A DNA stretch of 64,000 bases. Source: Nitrospira sp. GTDB lineage: Bacteria > Nitrospirota > Thermodesulfovibrionia > UBA6902. The notes under the pieces are model-generated. The model was given only the letters and a program-made list of their open reading frames with translations. It did not search any database and was not told the DNA's origin. Numbering within the stretch: the first letter of the stretch is position 1; each line of letters starts with the position of its first letter. A program made the position numbers and the translations under genes. Location: the NCBI GenBank assembly GCA_016784355.1, contig JADHUV010000004.1, forward strand, positions 48,201-112,200, in the 5' to 3' direction. This document shows positions 8,312 to 62,880 of the stretch, piece after piece.

Positions 8312-10027
8312 TTACTTAATACATTTGCTGCTGCATTTGTATCTGTTTAATTTCCGCATCAGCGGCTTTTCCGGTTCTTTGGGAAGCATAGCACTTTGAG
8401 TACCGGGCAGTCTTACAATATGCGGCGTAATAAGCAGGACGAGTTCACTTTTCTCTTCTGATTCCTGCGTACTTGTAAATGCCGTTCCAATAACCGGAAG
8501 ATCTCCGAGAAGGGGGATTTTTCTCTCATTATTGGAGTAGGTAGTGCGGGTAAGCCCTCCCACTGCAATAGTTAAGTTATCTTTAGCAATTATAGTTCCC
8601 TGAAGCCTCGCGGTATTAATGGCATCGATTGGCAAGTTAAGAACCTTGCCTTCTGAAACCACGGGTATTATCGCTCCATTTGTTCGGACATCTGAGCTTT
8701 CCTGCTGGATATTCAGCGTAATCGTGCCATCAGCATTAATGAAGGGAATTATCTCGATAGTATTGCCTATTTCCTGTACTGACGTTTCAGGTACGATATT
8801 CTCACTATTGTCACTGATGATATTACCGTTTATGTCTACATTGGTGTTATTGCTCACACTGTTGTATCCTGTCACCAGAACGCGCTCATCTCCGACAAAA
8901 AGGCGCGCCGGACGGTTGTTCGATGCCAATATCATTGGGGACGAAAGTATGTTCACTCGGTTCTGCTGTTCCATCAGTTCCATATTGGCCCGCAGCCTGC
9001 CGTTCAGATACTCAAAGACAAAGGTGCCGGCGCCGGGCAGCGCATTATTACCGAGCAGGGCGGGAATGGTGCTTTCGGAAAAAGCCCCTCCTTCAATCTC
9101 ATAGTTAAATATTGAAGTAAAGTCATCATCTACCAGTACGTTGATGATGCGCATCTCCAGGAGTACCTGAGGAACGGGCCTGTCCAGCCCCTTTATCAGT
9201 TCTTGTATGCTTTTTAACGCAAGCTTGTCACTGGAGCGTACAATAATAAGGTTGTGCTCGAAGTTCGCGGTCAGATAAACAGGCGCTTCCTGCGCTGTAA
9301 GCGCCTGCAGCTGATCAGCTGATATCTGATTATAGCCGCCCCCGGTAGGTGTCAGCGCGGCAATCTGGTCAATGCTTAGTTCTCCCTTCACCTTCCCGGC
9401 CTGTCCGGTACTGTTTGAGTTGCTATTCGATGAATTATTCCCGGAGGAATTAAAGAAACTGTTGTTGGTTACGCTGTTAAAATCATCATTTCTTTTTTCA
9501 GCGGAAATTCCCGCGAACCCTGCACTCCCCGGACTGCCGCTGCCGCCTGACTGCCTGCGCGTCACACGGTCCCCGTAGAGGTCTTCAATTGCATTTGCAA
9601 CCAGTTCCACATTCGGGTTGCTGAGTGTGAATATTTTAGTCTCGTCGTCATGGTGTACTATCAGGTCTTTACGGTACTCTTCGGTAGTCATGATGCGATA
9701 GGTAGCGGTATCACCGTCCTGCCGGTACCAGAGATTATTAATACGGCATATAGTTTCAATGACGTGCTTAACAGAAACGTCTTTAAGGTAGATAGTCACG
9801 GTTGTTTCAGCTGCCGATGAAGTAGCAACAATATTGGCGCCGGACATTTCAGAAATAACACGTATAACGTCAATAAGACGGGCGTCTCTGTATTCCAGTT
9901 CACTGATAATCATGCCGGAGATAACATCCGGTCCAGCCGCCCCGCTCCAGGTCCCGGCAAAAGCTGAAACAGGTAGCATCGCTGCAATTAAAATAAAAAC
10001 AATATATCGCATAATATTATCTGACAA
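8312..10027 (-). CDS. gspD: Secretin (GspD/PilQ family) outer-membrane channel
   Basis: C-terminal secretin motif GGLTRTT...IPLLGDLPVIG...LLITPHIV. Signal peptide present. An internal Asn/Ser-rich low-complexity stretch is also present. Confidence 0.85.
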   Translation of the reverse strand: MSDNIMRYIVFILIAAMLPVSAFAGTWSGAAGPDVISGMIISELEYRDARLIDVIRVISEMSGANIVATSSAAETTVTIYLKDVSVKHVIETICRINNLWYRQDGDTATYRIMTTEEYRKDLIVHHDDETKIFTLSNPNVELVANAIEDLYGDRVTRRQSGGSGSPGSAGFAGISAEKRNDDFNSVTNNSFFNSSGNNSSNSNSNSTGQAGKVKGELSIDQIAALTPTGGGYNQISADQLQALTAQEAPVYLTANFEHNLIIVRSSDKLALKSIQELIKGLDRPVPQVLLEMRIINVLVDDDFTSIFNYEIEGGAFSESTIPALLGNNALPGAGTFVFEYLNGRLRANMELMEQQNRVNILSSPMILASNNRPARLFVGDERVLVTGYNSVSNNTNVDINGNIISDNSENIVPETSVQEIGNTIEIIPFINADGTITLNIQQESSDVRTNGAIIPVVSEGKVLNLPIDAINTARLQGTIIAKDNLTIAVGGLTRTTYSNNERKIPLLGDLPVIGTAFTSTQESEEKSELVLLITPHIVRLPGTQSAMLPKEPEKPLMRKLNRYKCSSKCIK

Positions 10028-10592
10028 TGATCATACCCCCCAATGTTCCAACCTCCACAACGATACTCAGTCTGTCCATTTTCTGAATTTTTATTACTTC
10101 CTCGGGGCCGGCAGGGCTGATGCTTATCTGATCTCCGGCCCGGACCATATAGACGCCGCTGCCAGCTACTTCCAACAGAGCAATCGAGTCGTCAGGCGTG
10201 TCTTTGTAGGTGATACCCCTTAGTGTAAGTTTCGGGATACGCACTGTTTCTGGAGCTGCTCTGAATAGAGGGGCACTGCCATAAGCAATAGCAGTCTCCA
10301 TTTCCGGCGTAACGGTAAAAGGGTCCCTTACCTCCCGGTTATAGGGTTTGTGAGTGTCAGTGATGGGCGCGCGGGTATCATCATTAGCGCCCTGTTTGCG
10401 CATATATTTCTCCAGTTCCCCGTAGTGGTCATTCATAGTATTCATCAGAGTAGGCAGTTTTTCCATCAATGCCCTGCCCGGGTCGCTCTCCTCGGCATAG
10501 GCATTTATATGAAACAGGGACACAATAATAATTCCTGACACTAAAAAACATGCTGCACGATATTTTCTGTAATAATTTAATCTCATTTTCAT
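10017..10592 (-). CDS. Pilus/secretion-system accessory protein, GspC/PilP-like
   Basis: Signal-anchored 191-aa protein lying between gspF and the secretin. Confidence 0.35.
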   Translation of the reverse strand: MKMRLNYYRKYRAACFLVSGIIIVSLFHINAYAEESDPGRALMEKLPTLMNTMNDHYGELEKYMRKQGANDDTRAPITDTHKPYNREVRDPFTVTPEMETAIAYGSAPLFRAAPETVRIPKLTLRGITYKDTPDDSIALLEVAGSGVYMVRAGDQISISPAGPEEVIKIQKMDRLSIVVEVGTLGGMIIVR

Positions 10593-11806
10593 CCTCCTGA
10601 AATGGCAAAAACAGCGCTAAAAAACGCGATATATACAAAACCGACCATGCCCCCTATGAGCAGGATGGCCACAGGCTCCATTAACGCCGCCAGGACTTTG
10701 CTTTTGACCTGAAGAGCATTTTCAAAATAGTTTCCGGCTTCATCCATAATCTGGTCCAGACTTCCCGAGCTTTCTCCTACAGAAGCCATTTGCTGAATCA
10801 ATGGACTAATATGGGCATGCCGGAAACTCTCTTCGAGTGTGCCGCCGCGCGATATGTTTGAGCCGGCAGAAATAATTGAATCAGAGACAACGCGGTTTCC
10901 TACAAGGTCTTTTACAATGCCGAGTGATTCTACGATTGTAAGGCCGCTTCTCAGCAGTACAGACAGTCCCCAGCAAAGTTGAGACATGCAGGAAAGGTGA
11001 ACGACATGCCCGAACACCGGTATCATAAGAATGATGCGGTCGATGGCCCGGCGCGGCCCCGGTTTTTGATAGGAATAGACAATAGCGGCACAGGTCATCA
11101 TGAAAACTATCATCAATAAAATGCCCCAGGACTGAGCAAAATCACTTACATCAATTAATGCCTGTGTCATGGGGGGTACTACATTTCCGCGCCGTTGAAT
11201 GAATTCTGCAAACTTCGGGATTACCCCGACAGCAAGAAAAATAAACAGCCCGATAGCGAACAGCAGTGTAATGGAAGGATAAAGCATGGTGACTATTGTC
11301 TGACGCTTAAGTTCAGCCTTACGTTCCATATGGCCGGCAATACGTTCGGCGATAATATCCAGTTCGCCGGATGCTTCCGCACTGCGGACCATATGACACA
11401 CAATCCCCGGAAATACAGAGGGGTGCGCGCCCAGTGCCTGCGAGAAACGGTTCCCTCTTGTGACCTGTCTAAGGATGTCTTTCACAATGCTTTTCATGCG
11501 TCCCGTCATCAGGCGTTCGATTGACCGTAAACTTTCTGCCAGTGGCATACCGGAACGCAGCAGCACGGATAACTGGCGGAAAAAGAATATTTTACGCATT
11601 ACTGTTACAGGCATGAGATCTGACAACATATTGCGCACATCATTATTCTTTTCAATTGCAGCAGGGTCATCATCTGTATTTATCGATGTTACAAAAACGT
11701 CCCTGGATTTCAGTTGTGCTCTTGCGGAGCGCATATCAGGGGCTTGAATAATACCTTTAATCTCTTCACCATTTTCTCTTAGCGCTGTGTAGCGGAAACC
11801 CGTCAT
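10589..11806 (-). CDS. gspF: Type II secretion / type IV pilus platform protein (GspF/PilC)
   Basis: 405 aa with three transmembrane segments and two repeated GspF domains. Confidence 0.85.
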   Translation of the reverse strand: MTGFRYTALRENGEEIKGIIQAPDMRSARAQLKSRDVFVTSINTDDDPAAIEKNNDVRNMLSDLMPVTVMRKIFFFRQLSVLLRSGMPLAESLRSIERLMTGRMKSIVKDILRQVTRGNRFSQALGAHPSVFPGIVCHMVRSAEASGELDIIAERIAGHMERKAELKRQTIVTMLYPSITLLFAIGLFIFLAVGVIPKFAEFIQRRGNVVPPMTQALIDVSDFAQSWGILLMIVFMMTCAAIVYSYQKPGPRRAIDRIILMIPVFGHVVHLSCMSQLCWGLSVLLRSGLTIVESLGIVKDLVGNRVVSDSIISAGSNISRGGTLEESFRHAHISPLIQQMASVGESSGSLDQIMDEAGNYFENALQVKSKVLAALMEPVAILLIGGMVGFVYIAFFSAVFAISGG

Positions 11807-13458
11807 GCAACCTCCTTGTCCGGGCTGGCGGCAGCATTACAGAGACCGAGCTTTTTCAACTCTTCCATAGAAGTAATCCCCTTTAAGACTTTATCGCGGC
11901 CGTCGTCTGCAAGCCTGAGATGGGCGGTCGCGTGTTCGGTTATCTCACTTTCACTTGCAGCTCGCTGAATCAGATGACCTGTCTTTTCATCAAGCCATAA
12001 TGTCTCATACAATGCTGTTCGTCCCTTATATCCCGTACCCATGCAATGTGCACACCCCCGCGGCCTGAAGATGATAGTTGCAGCATCCTCCTGCAGAGAC
12101 ATACCAATGTTTTCTTCTGCAGATGCTGCTATAGGCTCTTTGCACAGGGAGCAGAGACAACGTACCAGACGCTGGGCAATCACGCATAAGAGTGTAGAAC
12201 CTATGAGATAACGTTCTACTCCCAGGTCAGCTAACCGTCCTATGGCAGAAACAGCGTCATTCGTGTGAAGTGTAGAAAACACGAGGTGTCCGGTCATGGC
12301 AGACTTAACGGCAATATCCGCTGTTTCATTGTCACGTATTTCCCCGACCATGATAACGTCAGGATCATGGCGCAGGAACCCTCTGAGAGCGGATGCAAAG
12401 GATACTTTAGTGCTGATCTGCACCTGGGCTATGCCTTCCATTGCATATTCTACAGGGTCTTCTACTGTAAGAATATTAATGTCTTCACGGGCAATCTCCC
12501 TCAGTGCCGCGTAAAGGGTCGTGGACTTTCCGCTGCCTGTCGGGCCAGTAAGCAGTACCATGCCGTGGGACTTTTCTATAGCTTTCCGAAAATGGTGAAG
12601 AGTACCTTCTCCCATGCCGATATTGTCCAGTGTTAATTTTTCAGTTTCCGAACCAAGAATCCTGAGTGTGGCACGCTCTCCAAAGCGGGTAGGCATGGTT
12701 GCAGCGCGAATATCGAACTCCCTGGCGGTTTTTATGTTGAATGTAAAACTACCGTCCTGTGGATAACGCTGTTCTGAAATATCCATATGGGCCAGCACTT
12801 TCATGCGGCTGATAAGTGCCTGTCCTTCTTCTGTCCTGTATTCAAAAGGATATTGCTTCAGATGGCCGTCTATTCTCAAGCGGACCTGAAACAGGTCCTG
12901 CCGCGGCTCCAGATGGATGTCGGAAGCGCGATGCAGATATGCCTCTTTTAATATCCGATCCAGAACATCTACAGGATCAAATGCTTCACTGCCAAACTGT
13001 ATGTCTGACTGTGCAAATGGTTTACTTACGGCTTTTGACAATGCATAGCGCAGTTCCTCAGGATTGGTCAGAACAATTTCCACAGGACTGTTCAACGCGC
13101 GCTTGGCCTGTTCAATACCGGAATGGTCTTCCGGGTCAGTGATGGCAAGAAATATAACATGATCATGTTTTATCCCCTGAACAATGGGGACAATAAGCCG
13201 TTTTTGTACCAGATAGGTCGGCATTGATTTTAAAGCCTTCATGTCAATATTCAGTCCTTTCCCGGTGACATAATCCATGTTATGAAGCTCCGCATAAGCC
13301 CGGTAAATCGAAGACACCGGAACCCTGTGCATTATACTCAGTGACTCCAGAAGGTCCTGGCGCAGTCTCCTGGCCTCTTTCTTCACGATCATCATCTGCT
13401 CCGGTGTGACCAGCCCCTGCTGTATTGCCGCATTTATTAGTGATGATGTCTTGATCAT
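11803..13458 (-). CDS. gspE: Secretion/assembly ATPase of the GspE/PilB/MshE type
   Basis: N-terminal MshE/GspE-N domain, Walker A GPTGSGKST, and a tetracysteine motif CxxC...CxxC. Confidence 0.9.
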   Translation of the reverse strand: MIKTSSLINAAIQQGLVTPEQMMIVKKEARRLRQDLLESLSIMHRVPVSSIYRAYAELHNMDYVTGKGLNIDMKALKSMPTYLVQKRLIVPIVQGIKHDHVIFLAITDPEDHSGIEQAKRALNSPVEIVLTNPEELRYALSKAVSKPFAQSDIQFGSEAFDPVDVLDRILKEAYLHRASDIHLEPRQDLFQVRLRIDGHLKQYPFEYRTEEGQALISRMKVLAHMDISEQRYPQDGSFTFNIKTAREFDIRAATMPTRFGERATLRILGSETEKLTLDNIGMGEGTLHHFRKAIEKSHGMVLLTGPTGSGKSTTLYAALREIAREDINILTVEDPVEYAMEGIAQVQISTKVSFASALRGFLRHDPDVIMVGEIRDNETADIAVKSAMTGHLVFSTLHTNDAVSAIGRLADLGVERYLIGSTLLCVIAQRLVRCLCSLCKEPIAASAEENIGMSLQEDAATIIFRPRGCAHCMGTGYKGRTALYETLWLDEKTGHLIQRAASESEITEHATAHLRLADDGRDKVLKGITSMEELKKLGLCNAAASPDKEVA

Positions 13459-14573
13459 AATTGTCCCGTTCCGCTTAATCTCTGCTGCGTTTCCTGTCTC
13501 AGGCCGTAGAGAATCTCCCTAAAGTGATCAGAGTTATGCGCCAGCCTGGAGGCTGTGTCTTCTGATATCATCCTCTCTCTGACCCGTTCTGCCAGCGCAT
13601 GGTCCAGTAACTGATTGCCCCGGGCACGCCCCGACTGCATTATCGAACGTATCTGTTCAGGTTTGTGGTTGCGGATCAGATTGGCAACGGCATTGTCCAC
13701 AATTAATATCTCATTGACAGGGACACGCCCCCTGCCGTCAACGGTTTTTACAAGCATCTGCGTTACAACGGCCCGCAGCACTCTCGACAGCTGCTGGCGA
13801 ACGCCAGTCTGTTCATTACCGGGGAAGGCGCCGACAAGACGGTCTATGACACCGACAGCATCATTTGTATGCAATGTGGAGAATACCAGGTGCCCTGTTT
13901 CAGCCGCCTGCAAAGCGGCATGCATGGTAGGAACATCACGCATTTCACCAAGCAGGATAACATCCGGGTCTTCACGTAATGCCGCACGGATCGCATGTGC
14001 ATAAGATGGTACATCATTGCCGATTTCTCGCTGGTGAATCATGGCTTTTTTGTTGCAGTGCACGAATTCGACAGGGTCCTCTATCGTAATTATATGACAG
14101 TATCGTCTGTTGTTGATCTCATTGATAATGCTTGCCAATGAAGTGGATTTACCACTCCCGGTTGTCCCTGTAAACAGTATCAGCCCGTCTTTCAGTTCAG
14201 CCAGTTCATAAAGCTGTGGAGGAAGTTTAAGTGACTCTATGCTTGCCGATACATCTTCCAGTCTTCTTATGGCCAGGGCTTTTGTACCATGTTGATGATA
14301 AATATTTATACGGAACCGTATGTTCTTTACTGATGTATAACCGGTATCAATCGTACGCTGCTCTTCAAGGATCTTCTTTCTCCTGCTGTCAAGGAGCTTT
14401 TCAGTAATCCCGTTGATTACTTCATGGTCAACAGGCAGTGTTGATGTGTCAGGGCGCAATTCGCCGTTGACGCGGTATGCGGGATGGCTGCCTTCGGACA
14501 AATGGAGGTCCGATGCCCCCAGCTGGCAGCAGACCAAAAGATAATGCTCTAATATGTCAGGTCTTTCTTTCAT
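13455..14573 (-). CDS. pilT: PilT/PilU-family retraction-type ATPase
   Basis: 372 aa. ASDLHL, GTTGSGKST, TIEDPVEF and AETGHLVFSTLHTN are all present. Confidence 0.85.
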   Translation of the reverse strand: MKERPDILEHYLLVCCQLGASDLHLSEGSHPAYRVNGELRPDTSTLPVDHEVINGITEKLLDSRRKKILEEQRTIDTGYTSVKNIRFRINIYHQHGTKALAIRRLEDVSASIESLKLPPQLYELAELKDGLILFTGTTGSGKSTSLASIINEINNRRYCHIITIEDPVEFVHCNKKAMIHQREIGNDVPSYAHAIRAALREDPDVILLGEMRDVPTMHAALQAAETGHLVFSTLHTNDAVGVIDRLVGAFPGNEQTGVRQQLSRVLRAVVTQMLVKTVDGRGRVPVNEILIVDNAVANLIRNHKPEQIRSIMQSGRARGNQLLDHALAERVRERMISEDTASRLAHNSDHFREILYGLRQETQQRLSGTGQL

Positions 14574-14574
14574 G

Positions 14575-15195
14575 TTATAAACTCACTGTCAGCATTGCTT
14601 CAATGTATCTGCTGGTGCCGGACGGAGTTGCTTTAACAGCCTGTATCTGCAAACGCATAATCACGGCATTAAAGGGCAATACCGCCAGCTGTCGTATGAA
14701 TTCGTTGACACTGATAAAAGCTCCTTGCAGTTTCAGGTCAAACAGTGGACGTTCATGTACGATTTGATTCCCGGCTTTCTTTGTCCCGGTGAGACTGTCT
14801 ATACGGAGCGAAGAGCGGTTTATTTGCAGTACCTTCATATTGTTCTTTTCTGCAAGTATGGTAATTTCACCTTTAGCATTTGCAAGGGCGTCACTGCTGA
14901 GAAGGTCAATTAAACCTTTTGAAAACCCTTCAAGCAGACGGTCAGTCTCTTCAATGCCCCGGGTCAGTTCGGCAATTTCTTTTTCCATGGCCTCCATGTT
15001 CTGAGCGCCGGTGCGGATCGGTCGCAGGCTGTTGCGCTCCTTCATTGTCTCCGCCAGTATCTCATTCATGCGCTTTCCCTCCGACTGCATCGACTTGACC
15101 CTTAACGTCAGATAACCGGCAGCCAAAATAGCAATTACAAGAAACAGGAGTAATGCCCTCTCCCGGGCATTTATTTTCTTCCACCATTGTGTCAT
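14575..15195 (-). CDS. GspM/PilO-like inner-membrane assembly protein
   Basis: One N-terminal transmembrane segment and a coiled coil, in the position following the GspL-like gene. Confidence 0.5.
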   Translation of the reverse strand: MTQWWKKINARERALLLFLVIAILAAGYLTLRVKSMQSEGKRMNEILAETMKERNSLRPIRTGAQNMEAMEKEIAELTRGIEETDRLLEGFSKGLIDLLSSDALANAKGEITILAEKNNMKVLQINRSSLRIDSLTGTKKAGNQIVHERPLFDLKLQGAFISVNEFIRQLAVLPFNAVIMRLQIQAVKATPSGTSRYIEAMLTVSL

Positions 15196-16901
15196 GATTT
15201 CCGCTCCATCAGAATGAAGGAAAACTCATAACCTTCCGCATCCTTCCATCCGCGGCCTGCAGCGCTTGGACTTTCGCTTATGTACAGGTTCCACTCCGCA
15301 ATATTGCGCGACAGGGACTGGTGGAACATATCAATATGGCGCTGCTCCAATGCCCAACCCTTTATGTGAAAGAGAAACCACTCCTGCTCGTCTATACTTT
15401 CGAGCACAACACCATCCGGGATGCTTCCGGTTATTGCCTCAAGAAAACCGGTCATCACCTGCTGCCTGTGCATAAATACTCTTTCAACTGCATCTTTCCG
15501 ATGTTTCAGACTGGTATTTTTGTCTTCCATTGCATCCCGTTTAGCAACAAGTTTTTGATATTCAGCGCTTTTATTAGACATTTTTTCATTTGCGCGCGCA
15601 ATTGTCCTGACCTCACCCTGCAGCGTTTCCGTCTCTGCCATTATTTTCCCCATAGATCTACTATGAGATATTTCGTAGAAACCAATAAATACAAGCAGAC
15701 ATGCCGTTGCAATATTAAGCCAGGCCATGGGCCGCTTATGCATGGCCGGCAGAGGAGGTTCTCCTGGAAGAAAGGGCGCAAGAAGATGAGATGACATACC
15801 CAGATAATGGCGCGAGCTCCCCAACAACGCATACCATGACTCTTTTTGAGACAACAGGGTACAGTCAAATTCTCCATTCAGTGAGAGGGGAAGCACTTTT
15901 CTATTCATCCGCTGCGCAAGGGCCGTCCCTAGATATTCTTTGTTAGGGTGTGATCCGGTAATGACCATTGCCTCCATATCCGCGGTAAGAACGGGACGGC
16001 ATAGTTCTGCAAGATCCTCCTCGCTAACAGAAATATTACAGGTCCTTCTATAGGCGCTTTGTGTGATCTCACCCTGTTCAATACTGGATACAGTAATATG
16101 TCCCTGCTCTATTTCCACCAGGCATTGTGCAGCAGGGGAGAGGGGCAGAAGTGCCGCGCTGGTCAATGCTTCAGGATATATTCTTTCCAGCCGAATTTCG
16201 CTGTTTCTCAGCGCCTGAAGCCATTCCCTCCCGATAGTTTCGTGTATTGCGCAGCATAATGTAAGCCCCGGCTGACTGCCTGCGGTTGTCGTGCTGTCTG
16301 ACCAGCCGCAATTCAGAGAATCTTCCAGGAGATGGAGCCGTTCCTGAATAGCAAGGCAATCTTCCAGCTGCTCACGATCAATAAAACCTTTTTCTATTGC
16401 TATTTCTCCAAAACGGGCAGGCAGCGTACCCCCGTGTCTTCCTGCGTAGCTTTCTTGCTTATCAAGCGTATCCAGTATTTGATCACGCTGAATGGCATCT
16501 ATATGTCCACGGGCTATCATTACCCAGCCGATATTGGGAGGAAGGGCAAGATCCTGTGTAAGCTCGTCCATTTCCCACCGGACCAGTTCTTCAATCTGTC
16601 CGGGAGCAATCTTCTTCCCCTGCGGAACGGGCAGTTTCAGCAGGGCAGGAACTGCGCCGGCACATACAAGCACAGCTTCTTTCGGTAAGGAAAGCCCTGC
16701 CTGTTTAAGTTGGCTCATTACCTGTTCAAGCGCCTGCCGGGCGACTACAGACCGGGTTTCTGCTGTCCCTTCAACCCGGAGAGATTCACCTTTTTTGGTT
16801 ATTATCATTGCCTTCAGGCCGAAGCCGTTTGCTTCAAGCGCCAATAACCGTTTTTTTTTTCTTTTTGTTAGCAGAGAGACGTGTTTAAGTATATTTTTCA
16901 T
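15192..16901 (-). CDS. gspL: GspL-like protein, a PilM-type cytoplasmic domain fused to a PilN-type TM/periplasmic domain
   Basis: 569 aa with a central transmembrane segment and a coiled coil after it. Codons 14-17 contain an A10 tract. Confidence 0.6.
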   Translation of the reverse strand: MKNILKHVSLLTKRKKKRLLALEANGFGLKAMIITKKGESLRVEGTAETRSVVARQALEQVMSQLKQAGLSLPKEAVLVCAGAVPALLKLPVPQGKKIAPGQIEELVRWEMDELTQDLALPPNIGWVMIARGHIDAIQRDQILDTLDKQESYAGRHGGTLPARFGEIAIEKGFIDREQLEDCLAIQERLHLLEDSLNCGWSDSTTTAGSQPGLTLCCAIHETIGREWLQALRNSEIRLERIYPEALTSAALLPLSPAAQCLVEIEQGHITVSSIEQGEITQSAYRRTCNISVSEEDLAELCRPVLTADMEAMVITGSHPNKEYLGTALAQRMNRKVLPLSLNGEFDCTLLSQKESWYALLGSSRHYLGMSSHLLAPFLPGEPPLPAMHKRPMAWLNIATACLLVFIGFYEISHSRSMGKIMAETETLQGEVRTIARANEKMSNKSAEYQKLVAKRDAMEDKNTSLKHRKDAVERVFMHRQQVMTGFLEAITGSIPDGVVLESIDEQEWFLFHIKGWALEQRHIDMFHQSLSRNIAEWNLYISESPSAAGRGWKDAEGYEFSFILMERKS

Positions 16902-17947
16902 TAATCTATCTCCAGTACTAGTGACGGCGGCGACATTCCGGGAAATATATTGAATTTTAAATATATATTTTTTCCTGTAGCGTCATAAACAACGTTTCCA
17001 TCCGTAGGCGTAACTCCAATTACTTTATCATTGTCAATCAAAACAAGAAGATAGGTGCCAAAAGGAATACGCTCACCTGCTGGAATGGTAATCTCAGCTG
17101 AATCAGTTACCTTATGCGTCATAAGGATATTACTTTTAGGCCCCACAGCGATGGGTTTCTGGTCAGCACTGCGATAGGTAACAGGCCATTCAGATTGCCC
17201 CCCGCTCGTAGTATTTTTATATACAAAAAGTGCAATAAAGTAGCCATTAGTATTAGTGATAATGGATGAGCCTTTATTGTTAAGTGTAATATTGATCTGA
17301 TTTACACCGATACTCCAATCATCGGGATATATATCTGCCGAGCGGTCGGGAAAAGTAGGAGTTATAGTTGATGCTGGTTGCAGGGAGATCTGATATTCGA
17401 TGGCCCCTGCCGGATCAGTAACAGTAAAATATCCTCCCCATGCGTCACGCAGTTCAGGAGTTGAGTCAAGTAGCGTCACAAGAGAAAGTGGGCGGCGGAA
17501 GCCCTTAAACATTGTCAGTTCTTTACTGTTCCCGCCGGCAACAGCCACTTTAACTGATTTATAAACGGTCGCTTCTGCGTAACGATAGTAAGGCTCTTTT
17601 TCGCCGTAGGGCTGCTGTACAGTGGTGCCATCAACTGCCCTATGCAGGGGCCAAAGAGGATATGGTGAAGATATCTCAGGCAATTTCCCATTATCAGCGA
17701 CATATCCTGAAAGGAGCGGTTGTTCTCCATCATATGTTATACGTATAACTGATTTATATATTTGATAAAGTTTCTGTACCGAAGCATCATAACGCTGCTG
17801 GTTGTCATTATTTTCAACAAAAACCATGGAAATGCTCGCCAGCACACCGAGAAGGAAAAGGACCAGCACCATTTCCAGCAGAGTAAATCCCCTCATTCCA
17901 CTAATATTATTTATACCGTTTGTCATGTTAGTTCCTAGAATATACAA
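16901..17947 (-). CDS. Large pseudopilin/minor pilin with a prepilin N-terminus
   Basis: GFTLLEMVLVLFLLGVL class-III signal, and cleavage motif G/FTLLE. Confidence 0.75.
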   Translation of the reverse strand: MYILGTNMTNGINNISGMRGFTLLEMVLVLFLLGVLASISMVFVENNDNQQRYDASVQKLYQIYKSVIRITYDGEQPLLSGYVADNGKLPEISSPYPLWPLHRAVDGTTVQQPYGEKEPYYRYAEATVYKSVKVAVAGGNSKELTMFKGFRRPLSLVTLLDSTPELRDAWGGYFTVTDPAGAIEYQISLQPASTITPTFPDRSADIYPDDWSIGVNQINITLNNKGSSIITNTNGYFIALFVYKNTTSGGQSEWPVTYRSADQKPIAVGPKSNILMTHKVTDSAEITIPAGERIPFGTYLLVLIDNDKVIGVTPTDGNVVYDATGKNIYLKFNIFPGMSPPSLVLEID

Positions 17948-18666
17948 AGCACAAGATCATCATTAGTGCCGGTTACAGTATATTTATTGCTGCATGCAGT
18001 TATGACTCCACTCTGGTAAATCCCGTCTTCACCCATGCTTACGATACGCGCCAGGCTGGTGTTGTTGAGATCAAAAAACAGATAGGGTCTGCCGTAACGG
18101 CTGATTGGCTGATCAGTACTTGCCTGTCCAACGAGACGCCAGTCAAACAAGCATGCGCTATTAGCAGCCACTTCTGAACAGGGAGTATCCAGGTTTGGCC
18201 TGATTTCCCCATTATTAACGGGTGCATAGGCAAAGGGATCTGGAATTGCCCGCTGCAATGTAACGGCTGTCGTGTCAATTACATAAGGAAGTCCGCTGCC
18301 GTCAAGCTTGAGATTGTCTCCTATATCTACCCGCCCGCTGTCCCCTCCGCTTAAATATGGGCCCCGCCATCCGGTTTTATAATCAACTCTCCAACTGACA
18401 AGCGTTCCCTGCTCAAAGAGAAATGAGATATCAGCTGCCGAATTCTGAACTGGAAATATTTGATTGTCCTGACGGAAACGGAGAAGGGTTTGCCGTATCT
18501 GCTCCATCTCAAAGCGCGCCGCTTCTATTTTAGCGGTATCTCCGATTCTGGAGGCAGGCGACCAGATAATCGCCCCTGCTATTACCGCCAGTATGGCGAC
18601 TACGACAACCAGTTCGAGTAATGTAAATCCCGACTGATTAATATTTTTAGTTATAGAATGTACCAT
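17935..18666 (-). CDS. Pseudopilin/minor pilin
   Basis: N-terminal hydrophobic pilin helix with motif GFTLLELVVVVAILAV. Confidence 0.75.
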   Translation of the reverse strand: MVHSITKNINQSGFTLLELVVVVAILAVIAGAIIWSPASRIGDTAKIEAARFEMEQIRQTLLRFRQDNQIFPVQNSAADISFLFEQGTLVSWRVDYKTGWRGPYLSGGDSGRVDIGDNLKLDGSGLPYVIDTTAVTLQRAIPDPFAYAPVNNGEIRPNLDTPCSEVAANSACLFDWRLVGQASTDQPISRYGRPYLFFDLNNTSLARIVSMGEDGIYQSGVITACSNKYTVTGTNDDLVLCIF

Positions 18667-18748
18667 TTAATTATGGACCGCAGGATTCATAAGGTAAGAC
18701 ACGGGGCAGCATTAATGCTGCCCCTGTATCTTTTATCAGATAAATACC

Positions 18749-19735
18749 TTAGCTTTTCTGACCTCTGAATTCAGCGATTTCCTCATCCAGGAAGTCACCC
18801 CGGGCATCAAGTATTGCCTGGACAATACCGCCTTGTGTGATATTGATAAGCGCTACGTAGTGAGCGTACTTATCCTTGCCAACCTGTCCGTAGAAAGGTG
18901 CCTTGGAAAATGGCGAGTTGGCCTTGCCAACAAGGTCTGAAGCCTGTCCAATTCCAACTCCAACGAGTACATCATTGACAGCTGCACCGACCTTCTTGTT
19001 GTTGTAACCATCGGTTCCGGCATTCCATACCATTGCAGGAGCGCCTGCAAGAAGAGGGGCTGAGAATCCGCGACCACGATTTTCCCATGATGTAGCTGTG
19101 TCTGGGCGTGGATCTTCAAATGCGTGGTTCATGATGTCCGATTTAACAAGCAGACCGGCCCCCAGAGCTGCATTGGTACCGCCGATTACTGTAGGAGTTG
19201 CATCGACTGAGGTTGCATCATTGTCACATGCTGCAGTAACTGCATAACGTAGAGTCGTAATGCCTGAATTGCTTAAATCAGTGGCCTCTGCAGCAGTCAA
19301 TGCCCTGAGAGTGAACTTCCCTGCGAGCTTGGAACCAAGGCCGCCGCCAATACCGGATACATCTGACTGTCCGCCAAATTTATAGGCTGCTGTTACTGTG
19401 GCGCTGTCCGGCGTTGCAGTGTTATTGATTGTCAGAGATGAATATAAAATTTCATCATAGGCGGGATTATAAGGCAAACAAGCCAGAGATTCCATTTCAG
19501 ACGGAAGACGGCCCTCTGTTGCCTGATAAATCTGAAGGGCATCCTGCACCCCTGCCAGTGTCTGTGTTGCCACGCCACGGGCAGCAGTCGTATCTTGACT
19601 TCCGAATGATGATATCATCGCTCCTCCAATGATGGCCATCACCGTGACGACTACAAGCAGCTCAAGCAAGGTGAAACCGTCCTCGCCCTTTGTATGATTA
19701 AGAACTTTTTTTGATTTGTTTAGAAGGTTACTCAT
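18749..19735 (-). CDS. Long type IV pilin-like protein, probably the major pilin or a pseudopilin
   Basis: GFTLLELLVVVTVMAIIG prepilin motif. 328 aa. First gene of the cluster. Confidence 0.75.
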   Translation of the reverse strand: MSNLLNKSKKVLNHTKGEDGFTLLELLVVVTVMAIIGGAMISSFGSQDTTAARGVATQTLAGVQDALQIYQATEGRLPSEMESLACLPYNPAYDEILYSSLTINNTATPDSATVTAAYKFGGQSDVSGIGGGLGSKLAGKFTLRALTAAEATDLSNSGITTLRYAVTAACDNDATSVDATPTVIGGTNAALGAGLLVKSDIMNHAFEDPRPDTATSWENRGRGFSAPLLAGAPAMVWNAGTDGYNNKKVGAAVNDVLVGVGIGQASDLVGKANSPFSKAPFYGQVGKDKYAHYVALINITQGGIVQAILDARGDFLDEEIAEFRGQKS

Positions 19736-22685: not shown

Positions 22686-23309
22686 ATGCCCCATTTACTT
22701 GAAATATATTCCGATTATATATGACCCTGGTGCTACTTCATTACCGGGCGTATTGAACGACTGAATAAGGAATATGAACTTGATGTCCGCTGGAGAGCAT
22801 TTCCTCTGCATACTGAAACACCTGAGGCGGGGACTCTTTTGAAAGATCTCTTCTCTAACTTCAGTAGCGATGACCTGATGAATATGAAACGCCGCATGAA
22901 AGAAGCAGCGGCTGAAGCTGGTTTGCCTTTTGGTGATCGGGATCGGACTTTTAACAGTCGCCTTGCACAGGAATTGGGCAAATGGGCTGAAAGAAATAAT
23001 AAGGGAGATGCATTTCAACACGCGATATTTAAGGCCTATTTTTCAGAGGGGATAAATATCGCCAAAATTCCCGCTCTTATAAATCTAGCTGCCTCAATTG
23101 GTCTGCCCCGTGAGGAAGCCGAGGTAGTACTTTTGCAAAGAACATTTAAAACAGATGTGGATGAGGATTGGTTGCTTTCGCAAAAGAACGGGATTACCGC
23201 TGTTCCCACATTTGTTATGAATAAAGAAAAATTAATCGGAGCGCAGCCATATGAGATGCTGGTAAATTTTATGGAAACGCAGGGCGTGCAGAAGAGAATT
23301 ATTTCATAA
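22686..23309 (+). CDS. DsbA/FrnE-family thiol-disulfide oxidoreductase, predicted selenoprotein with UGA-Sec at 22722-22724
   Basis: ATG at 22686 reads MPHLLEIYSDYI-[TGA]-PWCYFITGRIERL. This runs straight into the 22839..23309 ORF. The TGA sits where the first Cys of the DsbA CPWC motif is expected. A hairpin lies at 22737-22757, 12 nt downstream. Confidence 0.7.
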
Positions 23310-38402: not shown

Positions 38403-39002
38403 ATGAATTATTTTTTTAAATCTGGCGATATCCGTAACTACAGCATCATATTGTTCTTGATCCTATTGACAGCATTTGCCGGTCCGGCCGATGCCGGGGA
38501 GAAAGGTTCGGAAATGGCAGCGAATCATCCCTGGATAGGAAAAAAGGCCCCTCTTTTTGAACTGAAAACAATAGAGGGAAGGCATGTATCACTTTCTGAT
38601 TATCTTGGTAAAAAGAATGTAGTCCTGCACTTTGCGGCTACATGGTGACCTTTCTGTCGTGCGGAGGCTCCGCATCTGGAAGCACTTTTTAATGAAGGGC
38701 ATGCTGACCTTGCAGTATTTGTTGTAGACGTTAAAGAGGATAAGGATCATGTAGCAAAGTGGGGAAAGAAGATGGGCTATACACTTCCGATCCTTATGGA
38801 TACCGATGGGAAGGTAACAGCATCTTTTGCCCCGCCGGAAGTCCTGCCTGATATGCCTCGTGATGAGGTAGTGATCGCGGCAAATATTATTATTGACCGC
38901 CATGGTGTTATACAGTTCTTCGATCTGCTGGATTCCAGGAATTTTGATTCCAAACTGCTGAAGCTTCAAAGCCGGTTAAAGATGCTTCGGGCCGCAGAGT
39001 AA
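38403..39002 (+). CDS. Periplasmic TlpA/ResA-like thioredoxin-fold oxidoreductase, predicted selenoprotein with UGA-Sec at 38646-38648
   Basis: Signal peptide present. Reads ...VVLHFAATW-[TGA]-PFCRAEAPHL and runs in frame into the 38772..39002 ORF. The TGA sits where the first Cys of WCxxC is expected. A hairpin lies at 38660-38674, 11 nt downstream. Confidence 0.7.
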
Positions 39003-60253: not shown

Positions 60254-61357
60254 ATGGAAAAATTGATATTTAATAAATCCCCTGCGCCTACGATAGGTGT
60301 AGAACTTGAGATTCAGCTGCTCAGCAGGGAGACCATGGCGCTTGCGCCTTTTGCGCCTGCTGTCCTTGATATGGTCCCTGATAATATGATCGAGCGGATC
60401 AAGCCTGAGTTTATCAAGTCTATGGTGGAGATTAATACCGGCATCTGCTCCTCGGTAGCTGAGGTCGAGCGGGATCTCAGGGCTTCCTATTCCTGGCTCA
60501 ATGATGTTGTCGAAGGTATGGACGGCATGCTTTATCCGGTCAGCCTGCACCCTTTTTCAAGGGGGGCTGATCAGGAGGTTGCCGATAAGGAACGGTACAG
60601 GCAAATTATGGATGAACTGCAGCTGGTGGGCAGGCGTTTTATCACTCAGGGTCTGCACGTGCATATAGGTGTCGATGATGAAGAAAAGGTCATTCGCATA
60701 AATAATAACCTCCGCATTTACTTGCCAATACTGCTTGCAATCTCAACCTCTTCACCTTTTTATGAAGGAGAGGATACAGGGCTTATGTCTTATCGGTCAA
60801 AGCTGTTTGAGGCCCTGCCTCTGGCTGGAATGCCTGATTCCCTGGATAACTGGGCAGAGTTTGAGAAACTTATAAAGCTCTTCAGCAGCAGCGGTATCAT
60901 AGAATCAGTCAAGGACATATGGTGGGACGTAAGGCCTCATCCTGATTTTGGGACGGTTGAGATTAGAATCTGCGATCTTCCATACTGTCTTAATGATATT
61001 CTGGCGCTGACTGCTTTGATACAGGCGCTTGTAATAACTCTTGCTGATGTTGATGTACCCGAACCCCACATACAGATTCTGCGTTCTGATAAATGGCAGG
61101 CGGCCCGCTATGGATTAGACGGGACATATGCGGATCCATTTTATGGAAAGCAGTGTTCAATGAAGGAGGCCGCGCATAATCTGTATAAATTTGTCCGGCC
61201 CGCAGCGGAGATACTGAAGTCCACGAATTATCTTGATGAAATCCCTCAGATCCTTGAAAAACGGCTTACAGGTGCACATATACAGAAAAGGCTGTACAGG
61301 GAAGGCGGAGATTTCAATAAAATGATTCACAGTATGGCCGGCATGTTTCTGCAATGA
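60254..61357 (+). CDS. ybdK: Carboxylate-amine ligase of the YbdK / GCS2 family
   Basis: TIGVELEIQLL start, and the conserved HVHIGV. Confidence 0.8.
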   Translation: MEKLIFNKSPAPTIGVELEIQLLSRETMALAPFAPAVLDMVPDNMIERIKPEFIKSMVEINTGICSSVAEVERDLRASYSWLNDVVEGMDGMLYPVSLHPFSRGADQEVADKERYRQIMDELQLVGRRFITQGLHVHIGVDDEEKVIRINNNLRIYLPILLAISTSSPFYEGEDTGLMSYRSKLFEALPLAGMPDSLDNWAEFEKLIKLFSSSGIIESVKDIWWDVRPHPDFGTVEIRICDLPYCLNDILALTALIQALVITLADVDVPEPHIQILRSDKWQAARYGLDGTYADPFYGKQCSMKEAAHNLYKFVRPAAEILKSTNYLDEIPQILEKRLTGAHIQKRLYREGGDFNKMIHSMAGMFLQ

Positions 61358-62880
61358 AGGGGGCTGCTGCATCCGGTCACCCGCTTACCACAAAGGCTGC
61401 AACGGACATACTATCGATTGGCGGCAATGCATTTGATGCTGCGGTTGCTGCCGGCTTTGCCTCAACTGTAACAGAACCCACACTCACCAGCCTGGGCGGC
61501 GGTGGTTTTCTTCTGGCTCATGAAAAAAAGCAGCAGCGGGATATTCTGTTTGATTTTTTTGTGAATACGCCCGGTCTCGGCACACGGGAACCCCAACCGT
61601 CAGAAATGATCCCTGTAAGCATACAGTTCCCTGCCTGTGAACAGGTGTTTCATGTAGGCCATGCCTCTTTTGCTGTGCCCGGCACTTTAAAGGGACTGCT
61701 TCACGTTCACAGAAAGCTCGGTCGTCTCTCCCTGGCAGAGGTCATTGCTCCTGCACTTCAGTATCTGGATGCAGGAATTGAGACAAGCGCATTGCAGGGG
61801 AATTTTCTCGGCATGCTTAAGCCGATTTTTACTTTGACGCCAGGCTGCAGGGATATATACATTTGTGATGGTAAGTATGCCAGGGCCGGAGACAGGCTTT
61901 ATAATGCCGACCTGAAAAAGTTTTTCGAGGGAATAGTGACCGGGGAAAGTGATCTGTACAGCGGCAGTACGGCAGAGAGACTCATTGAAGAAGTAGAGCA
62001 GCATAACGGGCTTCTTACCATGCGGGATCTTCAGTCATATGAGGTTATTGAGAGGGAACCCTTGCGAGCATCATATCGTGGAAGGGAGATTCTGACAAAT
62101 CCCTCACCATCTTTCGGGGGTTCATTGCTTGAGCTGTGCCTTAAATATTTAGAGCGTCTGGATATTGCTCCTGAGGACCGGGACTCTGAAAAACTTCTGA
62201 CTGTCCTTGTAGAGCTTATAAGGGGAACTTCCAGTCTCAAGCCTGACAGGCAGAGTGATCTGCTGGGGCAGATATTTTCAGATAAGGATATTGGCTTTTT
62301 TTTAAATAATATGGATCAGATTATAAATGGCAAATCAGCAGTATCTACGCAGGGTACGACTCACATAAGCGTTATTGACTCTGAGGGTAATGCCGCGTCT
62401 CTGACTACATCAAACGGTACCGGTTCCGGATGCCTGATTCCGGGTACCGGCATAATGATAAATAATATGATGGGTGAAGATGATCTTCATCCAGGGGGGT
62501 TTTTCTCCTCAACACCCGGCCGCCGGGTTTCATCGATGATGATGCCTGCAATAGTGAAATTGGGGGGGCAGGTCGATGCGGTACTCGGCAGCGGAGGCAG
62601 CAAGAGGATACGTTCGGCTATGCTGCAGGTGATTGTTAATCTGATTGATTTCAGGCTTGATCTTAAGGAAGCAGTCGAGTCGCCGCGCATTCATTTTGAG
62701 GACGGTATTGTACAGGCAGAGCCTGGTAAGTCGATAGCAGTTATTGAAAAAATCGCCCGTAATTATAAGCTGAACTCCTGGGACGGGAAAAATATGTATT
62801 TCGGCGGGGTGCACTGCGTCAGCGGTAAGCTGGATGGTTGGGGAGACAGCAGGCGGGGGGGGACGTTTGCAGCGATTTAG
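61354..62880 (+). CDS. ggt: Gamma-glutamyltranspeptidase
   Basis: Catalytic Thr segment GTTHISVIDSEGNAASLTTS, and the GG motif GSGGSKRI. Confidence 0.85.
   Translation: MKGAAASGHPLTTKAATDILSIGGNAFDAAVAAGFASTVTEPTLTSLGGGGFLLAHEKKQQRDILFDFFVNTPGLGTREPQPSEMIPVSIQFPACEQVFHVGHASFAVPGTLKGLLHVHRKLGRLSLAEVIAPALQYLDAGIETSALQGNFLGMLKPIFTLTPGCRDIYICDGKYARAGDRLYNADLKKFFEGIVTGESDLYSGSTAERLIEEVEQHNGLLTMRDLQSYEVIEREPLRASYRGREILTNPSPSFGGSLLELCLKYLERLDIAPEDRDSEKLLTVLVELIRGTSSLKPDRQSDLLGQIFSDKDIGFFLNNMDQIINGKSAVSTQGTTHISVIDSEGNAASLTTSNGTGSGCLIPGTGIMINNMMGEDDLHPGGFFSSTPGRRVSSMMMPAIVKLGGQVDAVLGSGGSKRIRSAMLQVIVNLIDFRLDLKEAVESPRIHFEDGIVQAEPGKSIAVIEKIARNYKLNSWDGKNMYFGGVHCVSGKLDGWGDSRRGGTFAAI

Follow-up and report, generated by a model that had tools for sequence, protein, structure and literature searches.

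A gene of the DsbA/FrnE branch on a Nitrospirota-like contig very probably encodes a selenoprotein and is truncated in public annotation

Introduction

Genes in which a TGA codon specifies selenocysteine (Sec) raise the question of how such a codon can be told from an ordinary stop. Here, we consider one candidate, located within a 64,000-nucleotide stretch of a Nitrospira sp. contig (JADHUV010000004.1, positions 48,201 to 112,200 of the forward strand), which was analysed as a whole and is referred to as the window. At this locus a DsbA-like open reading frame is annotated without its active site, and a single TGA lies in frame upstream of the annotated start. Is this TGA the end of an upstream frame, or is it decoded? 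We conclude from comparative sequence analysis that 22686-23309 is very probably a genuine Sec-decoding gene, whose product would be a cytoplasmic thiol-disulfide oxidoreductase of the FrnE branch with a U13-P-W-C16 active site. It is a further, mis-annotated member of a selenoprotein family known since 2005. In the following, we describe the reading frame, the protein that it encodes, the TGA codon among its relatives and the downstream hairpin, weigh other readings of the codon where the evidence bears on them, and then outline a possible mechanism and compare the gene with known systems.

Reading frame and truncated annotation

The full coding sequence runs on the forward strand from an ATG at 22686-22688 to a TAA stop at 23307-23309 and specifies 207 residues that match PF01323. 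No start codon lies between this ATG and an in-frame TAA 15 codons further 5', homologues begin at the equivalent position, and only four residues separate the start from strand β1; a longer N-terminus, and with it a signal peptide, is therefore not possible. The frame contains one TGA (22722-22724), followed by CCC TGG TGC (PWC), and its read-through translation is MPHLLEIYSDYI-U-PWCYFITGRIE.... The TGA would correspond to Sec13, the first residue of a U-P-W-C motif (22722-22733, forward strand), as indicated by the homologous TGA codons, the Cys homologues and the Cys of FrnE at this position. In contrast, the mechanical open reading frame starts at a TTG at 22839, 153 nt or 51 codons 3' of the ATG, and covers 22839-23309 on the same strand; it encodes 156 amino acids without the active site, and the public call P0001 (ENA and NCBI pipelines) is likewise 156 amino acids long.

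A first-pass annotation, made from the sequence alone, had described the late start with its loss of 51 codons, the single TGA followed by PWC and the lack of a signal peptide. The coordinates were verified directly in the sequence, and the missing signal peptide agrees with the first start after the in-frame stop and with a domain that begins at residue 5. The same annotation predicted that standard gene callers would truncate the gene, which is what they do, both in P0001 and more widely: among the 120 closest proteins in a database of 5.8 billion proteins, 84 begin 3' of the active site, and the truncated starts vary between callers, giving products of 135-191 amino acids. In the Nitrospiraceae bin97 genome (CP070632.1; L007, 3001-3573), the deposited homologue, a 190-residue product with the sequence MTGRIEQ..., starts at an ATT just past the active site, a start forced on the annotation by the upstream TGA. 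The gene neighbourhood differs between the loci inspected, so that the context offers no functional clue.

Domain, fold and active site

For the profile search of the translation, U was entered as C. The protein matches the Pfam DSBA family (PF01323) from residue 5 to residue 195, which corresponds to profile positions 2-189 of 191 (E = 2.6e-30; 106.1 bits against a gathering cutoff of 25.6). As the match begins at residue 5, the domain is incomplete without the stretch that precedes the TGA; according to the structural model described below, the truncated product would be without strand β1, the active site and most of helix α1. NCBIfam holds no dedicated family model for this protein (best match 39.6 bits against a cutoff of 190). 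Among solved structures, the nearest match is FrnE of Deinococcus radiodurans (5cnw/5cp1; E = 3e-20, residues 5-195), whose CPWC aligns residue for residue with U-P-W-C, and the site that the first-pass annotation had assigned to the TGA is thus indeed the DsbA/FrnE active site. The UPWC sequence fits the FrnE active-site motif CP(W/F)C (PMC8945050) with Sec for the first Cys. Apart from U13 and C16, the protein, which ends at residue 207, contains no Sec or Cys, and it has no C-terminal CxxxxC.

The fold was modelled on a proxy, the natural Cys homologue P0026, which is 53% identical to the window protein. The AF2 model of P0026 has a pLDDT of 93.3, and its five best matches in the PDB are all FrnE structures (TM 0.87-0.89, rmsd 1.9-2.3 Å), the best being 5coh (TM 0.89, rmsd 1.9 Å). 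In this model the Sec-equivalent residue sits between strand β1 (6-12) and helix α1 (17-32), where the nucleophile of thioredoxin-fold proteins is usually found. Facing the active site is the putative thioredoxin-fold cis-Pro loop, Val173-Pro174 (23202-23207, forward strand), in which, across our protein alignment (A1), P174 never varies and V173 hardly ever does, both being aligned with the VP of FrnE; the cis conformation is one that we presume from knowledge of the family. With a domain that starts at residue 5 and no signal peptide, the protein is probably cytoplasmic. The earlier proposal of a cytoplasmic Sec-containing thiol oxidoreductase is thereby supported by the PF01323 and FrnE matches, by the absence of a signal peptide and by the conservation of the TGA, to which we now turn.

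The TGA codon among relatives

A scan of one genome per species returned 565 relatives, the best 80 of which were examined. In this set of the best 80 of 565, the codon homologous to that of the window gene is TGA in all 80 species-representative genomes, and the peptide around it, LEIFSDY[IV]-U-P[WY]CYFITGRIE, is conserved on both sides. The first-pass annotation depended on conservation of the N-terminal 12 codons, and this expectation proved sound, as LEIFSDY[IV] stands before a TGA at the same codon in all 80. The nearest relatives belong to the Thermodesulfovibrionia/Nitrospirota (70-76% identity), in line with the named affinities of the contig, which are with Nitrospirota; others among the best 80 include many Desulfobacterota, for example Desulfonema magnum, which is in culture, and a symbiont of Olavius algarvensis (L070), as well as Acidobacteriota and further groups. 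The median pairwise protein distance among the 80 genomes is 0.43. The only motif variant in the set is a U-P-Y-C in an uncultured Desulforhopalus (OY781976.1; L059, 3025-3036).

Among the 120 closest database proteins, the active-site residue is absent from the 84 entries that start past the site, is W in 32 and is C in 4. The four Cys forms carry CPWC (P0026, P0046, P0067 and P0073), and their codon, read in DNA for two of them, is TGT in P0026 (L088) and TGC in P0046 (L089). The W entries are of two kinds. In P0021 (L090, codon at 79 of the + strand) the DNA has TGA, miscalled as Trp under genetic code 4, and under code 11 this DNA does not yield the query protein. Such full-length 'W' entries of public metagenome protein sets hide selenoproteins as apparent WPWC proteins, as judged from the one entry outside P0011 that was read in DNA. 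The P0011 lineage, on the other hand, has a genuine TGG (Trp) at the Sec codon (L004, 2474-2476; L005, 2473-2475; L006, 240-242; MAGs GCA_018819005.1 and GCA_018820605.1). It comes from NCBI MAG assemblies and one ENA assembly, in two alleles distinguished by the synonymous codon just before the site, and still has the hairpin, with the loop CGUGC. CxxC chemistry should be lost with a Trp in the catalytic position, and the TGG may mark a loss of Sec decoding or a changed function; the lineage also shows that a full-length protein can be maintained with neither Sec nor Cys.

The machinery for Sec decoding was looked for around the gene. No selA, selB, selC or selD was found in about 84 kb (the window plus about 10 kb on each side) of a genome of several Mb: the nine large open reading frames of the window searched against Pfam are all unrelated to it, a tRNA scan of the window returned zero tRNA genes, and the roughly 10 kb past each window end contain neither sel genes nor tRNAs. 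Given the small share of the genome covered, this result weighs neither for nor against Sec decoding. In Nitrospirota, selC may overlap selB or be located inside it (PMC13188914). Elsewhere in the window TGA is an ordinary stop, as in the gene for the glutamate-cysteine ligase family 2 (GCS2) protein, which has full Pfam coverage and ends at a TGA at 61355-61357; a reassigned code is thereby excluded. Together with this, the Nitrospirota affinities of the contig and a second gene in the window with TGA at a WCxxC Cys (see below) lend indirect support to Sec decoding in this organism.

These observations bear on the reading that survives best beside Sec, namely that the UGA is decoded as Trp or Cys, by near-cognate read-through or through an altered code, with the hairpin only stimulating read-through. 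The genuine TGG of the P0011 lineage, the W at this site in 32 of the 120 closest proteins and the lack of Sec machinery in the roughly 84 kb examined speak in its favour, yet the one W entry outside P0011 that was read in DNA (P0021) has TGA, and TGA ends well-defined genes of the window. An alternative code with TGA for Trp, which the W homologues had suggested, was rejected on these two grounds. In addition, the site is the catalytic CxxC Cys, the classic position of Sec/Cys exchange, the family has been published as a selenoprotein family, and the position of the hairpin and its small, G-containing loop match the bacterial SECIS element (PMC1088965). Decoding as Trp or Cys is, in our view, very improbable.

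Less probable still, in our estimation, is the case in which the TGA is a true stop and the product is the 156-residue open reading frame from TTG 22839, a DsbA fragment without CxxC. This is how the ENA and NCBI pipelines call the gene, and no promoter or terminator site was found in a scan around 22686-23309, so that no such consensus defines the transcription unit. Against a true stop, the protein sequence is conserved in the 80 genomes (best 80 of 565) both over the 12 codons that precede the TGA and over the 38 that separate it from 22839, and the called starts are inconsistent with one another, ranging from 135 to 191 amino acids and including the ATT in CP070632.1. PF01323 needs the residues from 5 onwards, and a fragment without strand β1 and helix α1 would lose part of the modelled fold.

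A hairpin under selection downstream of the TGA

If the TGA is decoded as Sec, a bacterial SECIS element is expected next to it. This element has been described as a stem-loop just 3' of the UGA with a small apical loop that contains G (PMC1088965), and the position and CGGGC loop of a hairpin at 22737-22757 (forward strand) agree with this description. The hairpin, TTCATTAC-CGGGC-GTATTGAA, or UUCA(U)UAC-CGGGC-GUA(U)UGAA with the mismatched residues in brackets, begins 12 nt 3' of the TGA, and its apical loop lies at 22745-22749. The stem-loop given in the first-pass annotation stands as regards its distance from the TGA and its loop, whereas its stem is not a perfect helix of 8 bp but consists of seven pairs and one internal U.U mismatch. 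The SECIS reading as such is backed by the comparative evidence described below and not by the folding of a single sequence: the minimum free energy fold of 22722-22781 picks another helix (columns 5-11 with 21-27), and the stability of this segment is ordinary (z = -0.59; 43 of 200 shuffles are equally stable or better). One sequence alone does not go beyond chance, and it is through comparison that the hairpin becomes significant. Rfam returned nothing relevant, either at the gathering threshold over the whole window or in permissive searches of the two hairpins considered here (that of this gene and that of a second gene, see below).

The comparison is based on alignment A2, which is made up of 81 distinct sequences, each of 60 nt counted from the TGA, and whose column numbers are used throughout. 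The RNAalifold consensus of A2 returns the stem of the first-pass annotation. There are 15 double compensatory changes, comprising ten AU>GC changes at pair 19-33, four UA>CG changes at pair 21-31 and one AU>GC change at pair 22-30; across the 81 sequences, these three pairs show one G.U intermediate and zero broken pairs. The observed covariation was reached by none of 500 shuffles, and controls in a slid register gave zero double changes. In several independent lineages, an I>V change in the 5' arm is matched, in 10 of 10 cases, by a synonymous ATT>ATC change in the 3' arm. A neighbour-joining tree from which the hairpin residues were left out requires at least 7, 4 and 1 changes of state at the three pairs (at least 11 independent events), and the covariation signal therefore does not go back to one inherited event.

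Synonymous sites tell the same story. The seven hairpin codons, TTC-ATT-ACC-GGG-CGT-ATT-GAA, have normalised synonymous-codon entropies of 0.00, 0.21, 0.08, 0.05, 0.04, 0.36 and 0.47, compared with about 0.7-1.0 at nearly all other conserved codons of the gene. ACC, GGG, CGT and TTC are used in 97-100% of the sequences, while equally conserved residues elsewhere are encoded by mixed codons. Since the drop in entropy is limited to the hairpin codons, conservation of the protein cannot explain it. Taken together, covariation and codon usage argue that the hairpin is under purifying and compensatory selection at the RNA level.

The helix preferred by the single-sequence fold (CCUGGUG/UACCGGG, columns 5-11 with 21-27) was considered as a conserved element and rejected: its column 6, a synonymous third position of a Pro codon, drifts, 15 cells are broken, and its covariation is not clearly above that of the shuffled controls. 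In the Cys forms, the state of the hairpin can be followed in two DNAs, which makes any trend anecdotal: it is complete in L088 (TGT), presumably as a relic of a recent Sec-to-Cys conversion, and has two broken stem pairs in the more divergent L089 (TGC). Because a Cys form can have an intact hairpin, the presence of the hairpin alone is no proof of current Sec use.

Could the hairpin be a by-product of the conserved peptide FITGRIE, with no function as RNA? The peptide is highly conserved, in the Cys and Trp forms as well, and the single-sequence folding energy is unremarkable, both of which this reading would predict. It does not, however, account for third positions that are frozen beyond what amino-acid conservation requires, or for a non-synonymous I>V change that is paired every time with a synonymous one, and we regard it as very improbable. 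Least probable of all is a pseudogene whose active-site Cys codon suffered a nonsense mutation, since, although TGT or TGC is one base change away from TGA and Cys forms exist in the family, the same TGA is kept in 80 of 80 species (best 80 of 565) at a median protein distance of 0.43, which rules out sequencing error as well, the remainder of the frame is intact and the downstream hairpin is under purifying and compensatory selection.

Proposed mechanism

Under the Sec reading, the ribosome would reach the UGA at 22722-22724 and the hairpin at 22737-22757 would act as a bacterial SECIS element that recruits SelB.GTP.Sec-tRNA(Sec), so that Sec is inserted and translation does not terminate, as in established bacterial Sec decoding. 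In the folded protein, Sec13 is predicted to lie at the N-terminal end of helix α1, directly past strand β1, and to face the Val173-Pro174 loop. From the literature on FrnE (PMC8945050), Sec13 would be the attacking nucleophile on substrate disulfides and would cycle between a selenolate and a Sec13-Cys16 selenenylsulfide, and the activity may be the reduction or isomerisation of disulfides in cytoplasmic substrates, possibly of help under oxidative or metal stress. For the product of 22686-23309 we thus infer SelB dependence, selenium incorporation, a redox direction and a regenerating partner. As to direction, the placement of a Sec nucleophile in the cytoplasm favours reduction or isomerisation over oxidation; as to regeneration, the absence of the C-terminal CxxxxC suggests a route different from that of FrnE.

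A bolder proposal can be made for the short FrnE-like clade of the Nitrospirota and Desulfobacterota as a whole, whose members have a single U-x-x-C pair, no C-terminal CxxxxC and Sec in 80 of 80 species (best 80 of 565). This clade might be a near-obligate-Sec subfamily and form a distinct cytoplasmic selenenylsulfide module with its own reductant and substrate, an idea that we consider doubtful; if it were true, the natural replacements by Trp (TGG) or Cys would mark lineages that have lost Sec decoding.

Other features of the window

A scan of the window for other TGA read-through candidates found a second gene, which is probably also a selenoprotein gene, judging from its translation and its hairpin. 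It lies at 38403-39002 (forward strand), with a TGA at 38646-38648 and a GC-rich hairpin at 38659-38675, 10-12 nt after the TGA triplet. Its product would begin with a signal peptide, followed by HFAATW-U-PFCRAE, and resembles exported thiol:disulfide oxidoreductases of the TlpA/ResA type; the AhpC-TSA match spans the TGA (profile positions 1-123 of 124, E = 4e-23). No public protein call was found for this gene, and the mechanical list has an antisense open reading frame only. Cys occupies the TGA position in 83 of 83 motif-bearing homologues, and the TGA was found only in the window and in the 99%-identical L091 (an NCBI metagenome assembly), the metagenome scan for relatives having used WCPFCRAE back-translated with TGY, which biases it to Cys forms. 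As the TGA was seen in these two sequences only, the case against a recent nonsense mutation is weaker here than for the DsbA-like gene.

Elsewhere in the window, the GCS2 gene and a gamma-glutamyltranspeptidase gene (60254-62880, forward strand) overlap by ATGA at the GCS2 stop, with an M20 peptidase gene 5' of the pair. This is a small cluster for glutathione or gamma-glutamyl metabolism, and a link to the thiol oxidoreductases of the window is possible. On the reverse strand, a long same-strand cluster at 8312-19735 resembles type II secretion and type IV pilus systems by its Pfam hits (L001 and L136) and includes a secretin, a T2SSE ATPase, T2SSF and several N-methyl prepilin-like proteins. 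Finally, an AAA_21 (AbiEii-like) ATPase followed by a RloB-domain protein at 54432-56377 (forward strand) looks like a phage-defence or OLD-type module.

Comparison with known systems

The window protein shares features with several groups of thiol-disulfide oxidoreductases. Periplasmic DsbA of the E. coli type is a disulfide-forming oxidase that is recycled by DsbB. Like the window protein, it combines a CxxC-type site and a cis-Pro loop with a thioredoxin fold into which a helical segment is inserted, but classical DsbAs are exported with a signal peptide, which the window protein lacks; their structural likeness is also weaker (Foldseek TM of about 0.5-0.65 for the P0026 model), and no dsbB is found near the window gene. 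The Prx-like and TlpA-like UxxC selenoproteins follow the same principle, with Sec for the first Cys of CxxC and a SECIS hairpin downstream, but belong to another family (AhpC-TSA/Redoxin), are exported with a signal peptide and have a different hairpin sequence; the second gene of the window (38403-39002) is a probable member of this group.

Closer is FrnE of D. radiodurans (DR_0659; 5cnw, 5co3, 5coh, 5cp1 and 5xwh), a member of the DsbA family that acts as a disulfide reductase/isomerase in the cytoplasm (PMC8945050). It matches over the full length, has a CPWC site and no signal peptide, and shares the fold, as judged from the model of the Cys homologue P0026 (TM 0.89, rmsd 1.9 Å). The two proteins differ in that FrnE uses Cys where the window protein would use Sec, at an identity of about 30%, and in that the C-terminal tail of FrnE carries a CxxxxC (239-244), implicated in regeneration of the active site, which is absent from the window protein. 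This second motif is found in many members of the FrnE subfamily and not in all (PMC8945050), being absent, as in the window protein, from FrnE of S. roseofulvus and of D. maricopensis; its absence therefore does not exclude membership.

Closest of all is the 'DsbA-like protein' (COG2761, UXXC), which Zhang, Fomenko and Gladyshev described in 2005, with a SECIS figure, as a new family of selenoproteins in the Sargasso Sea (PMC1088965). In 2006 the family was recorded from Anaeromyxobacter, Desulfovibrio and Desulfotomaculum (PMC1794560) and in 2007 from the Olavius symbiont delta1 (PMC1976440); it was counted in 41 organisms with 45 genes in 2016 (PMC5029168), and is listed as 'DsbA-like protein form 1, PF01323, UxxC' in a 2026 review (PMC13188914). 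The label of an unannotated selenoprotein, given in the first-pass annotation, thus holds for this record and not for the family, which has long been known (PMC1088965, PMC5029168, PMC13188914). The gain is a modest one: a family catalogued since 2005 is extended by a member whose host is probably a Nitrospirota-like bacterium not yet in culture. Its practical point is annotation, given that among the 120 closest entries 84 are without the active site, 32 have Trp and only 4 are real Cys forms. The family is also an unusually clean case of a SECIS element inside a coding sequence, in which frozen synonymous codons and repeated compensatory changes are visible side by side, and gene callers that take selenoproteins into account could be trained on it. 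Compared by described features, the window gene and form 1 of the DsbA-like selenoproteins share PF01323, COG2761 (the FrnE group) and a UxxC site with Sec for the first Cys. In both, the UGA is closely followed by a SECIS-like hairpin whose small apical loop contains G. Sulfate-reducing and deltaproteobacterial lineages carry the family, Olavius symbionts among them, and such a symbiont is also found among the relatives of the window gene. What is particular to the window copy is its origin, an uncultured Nitrospirota-like contig, and its truncation in public annotation, and almost all members of the sampled clade have the Sec form (80 of 80 species among the best 80 of 565, with Cys in 4 of the 120 closest proteins); in the features compared, nothing essential separates the window gene from the known family.
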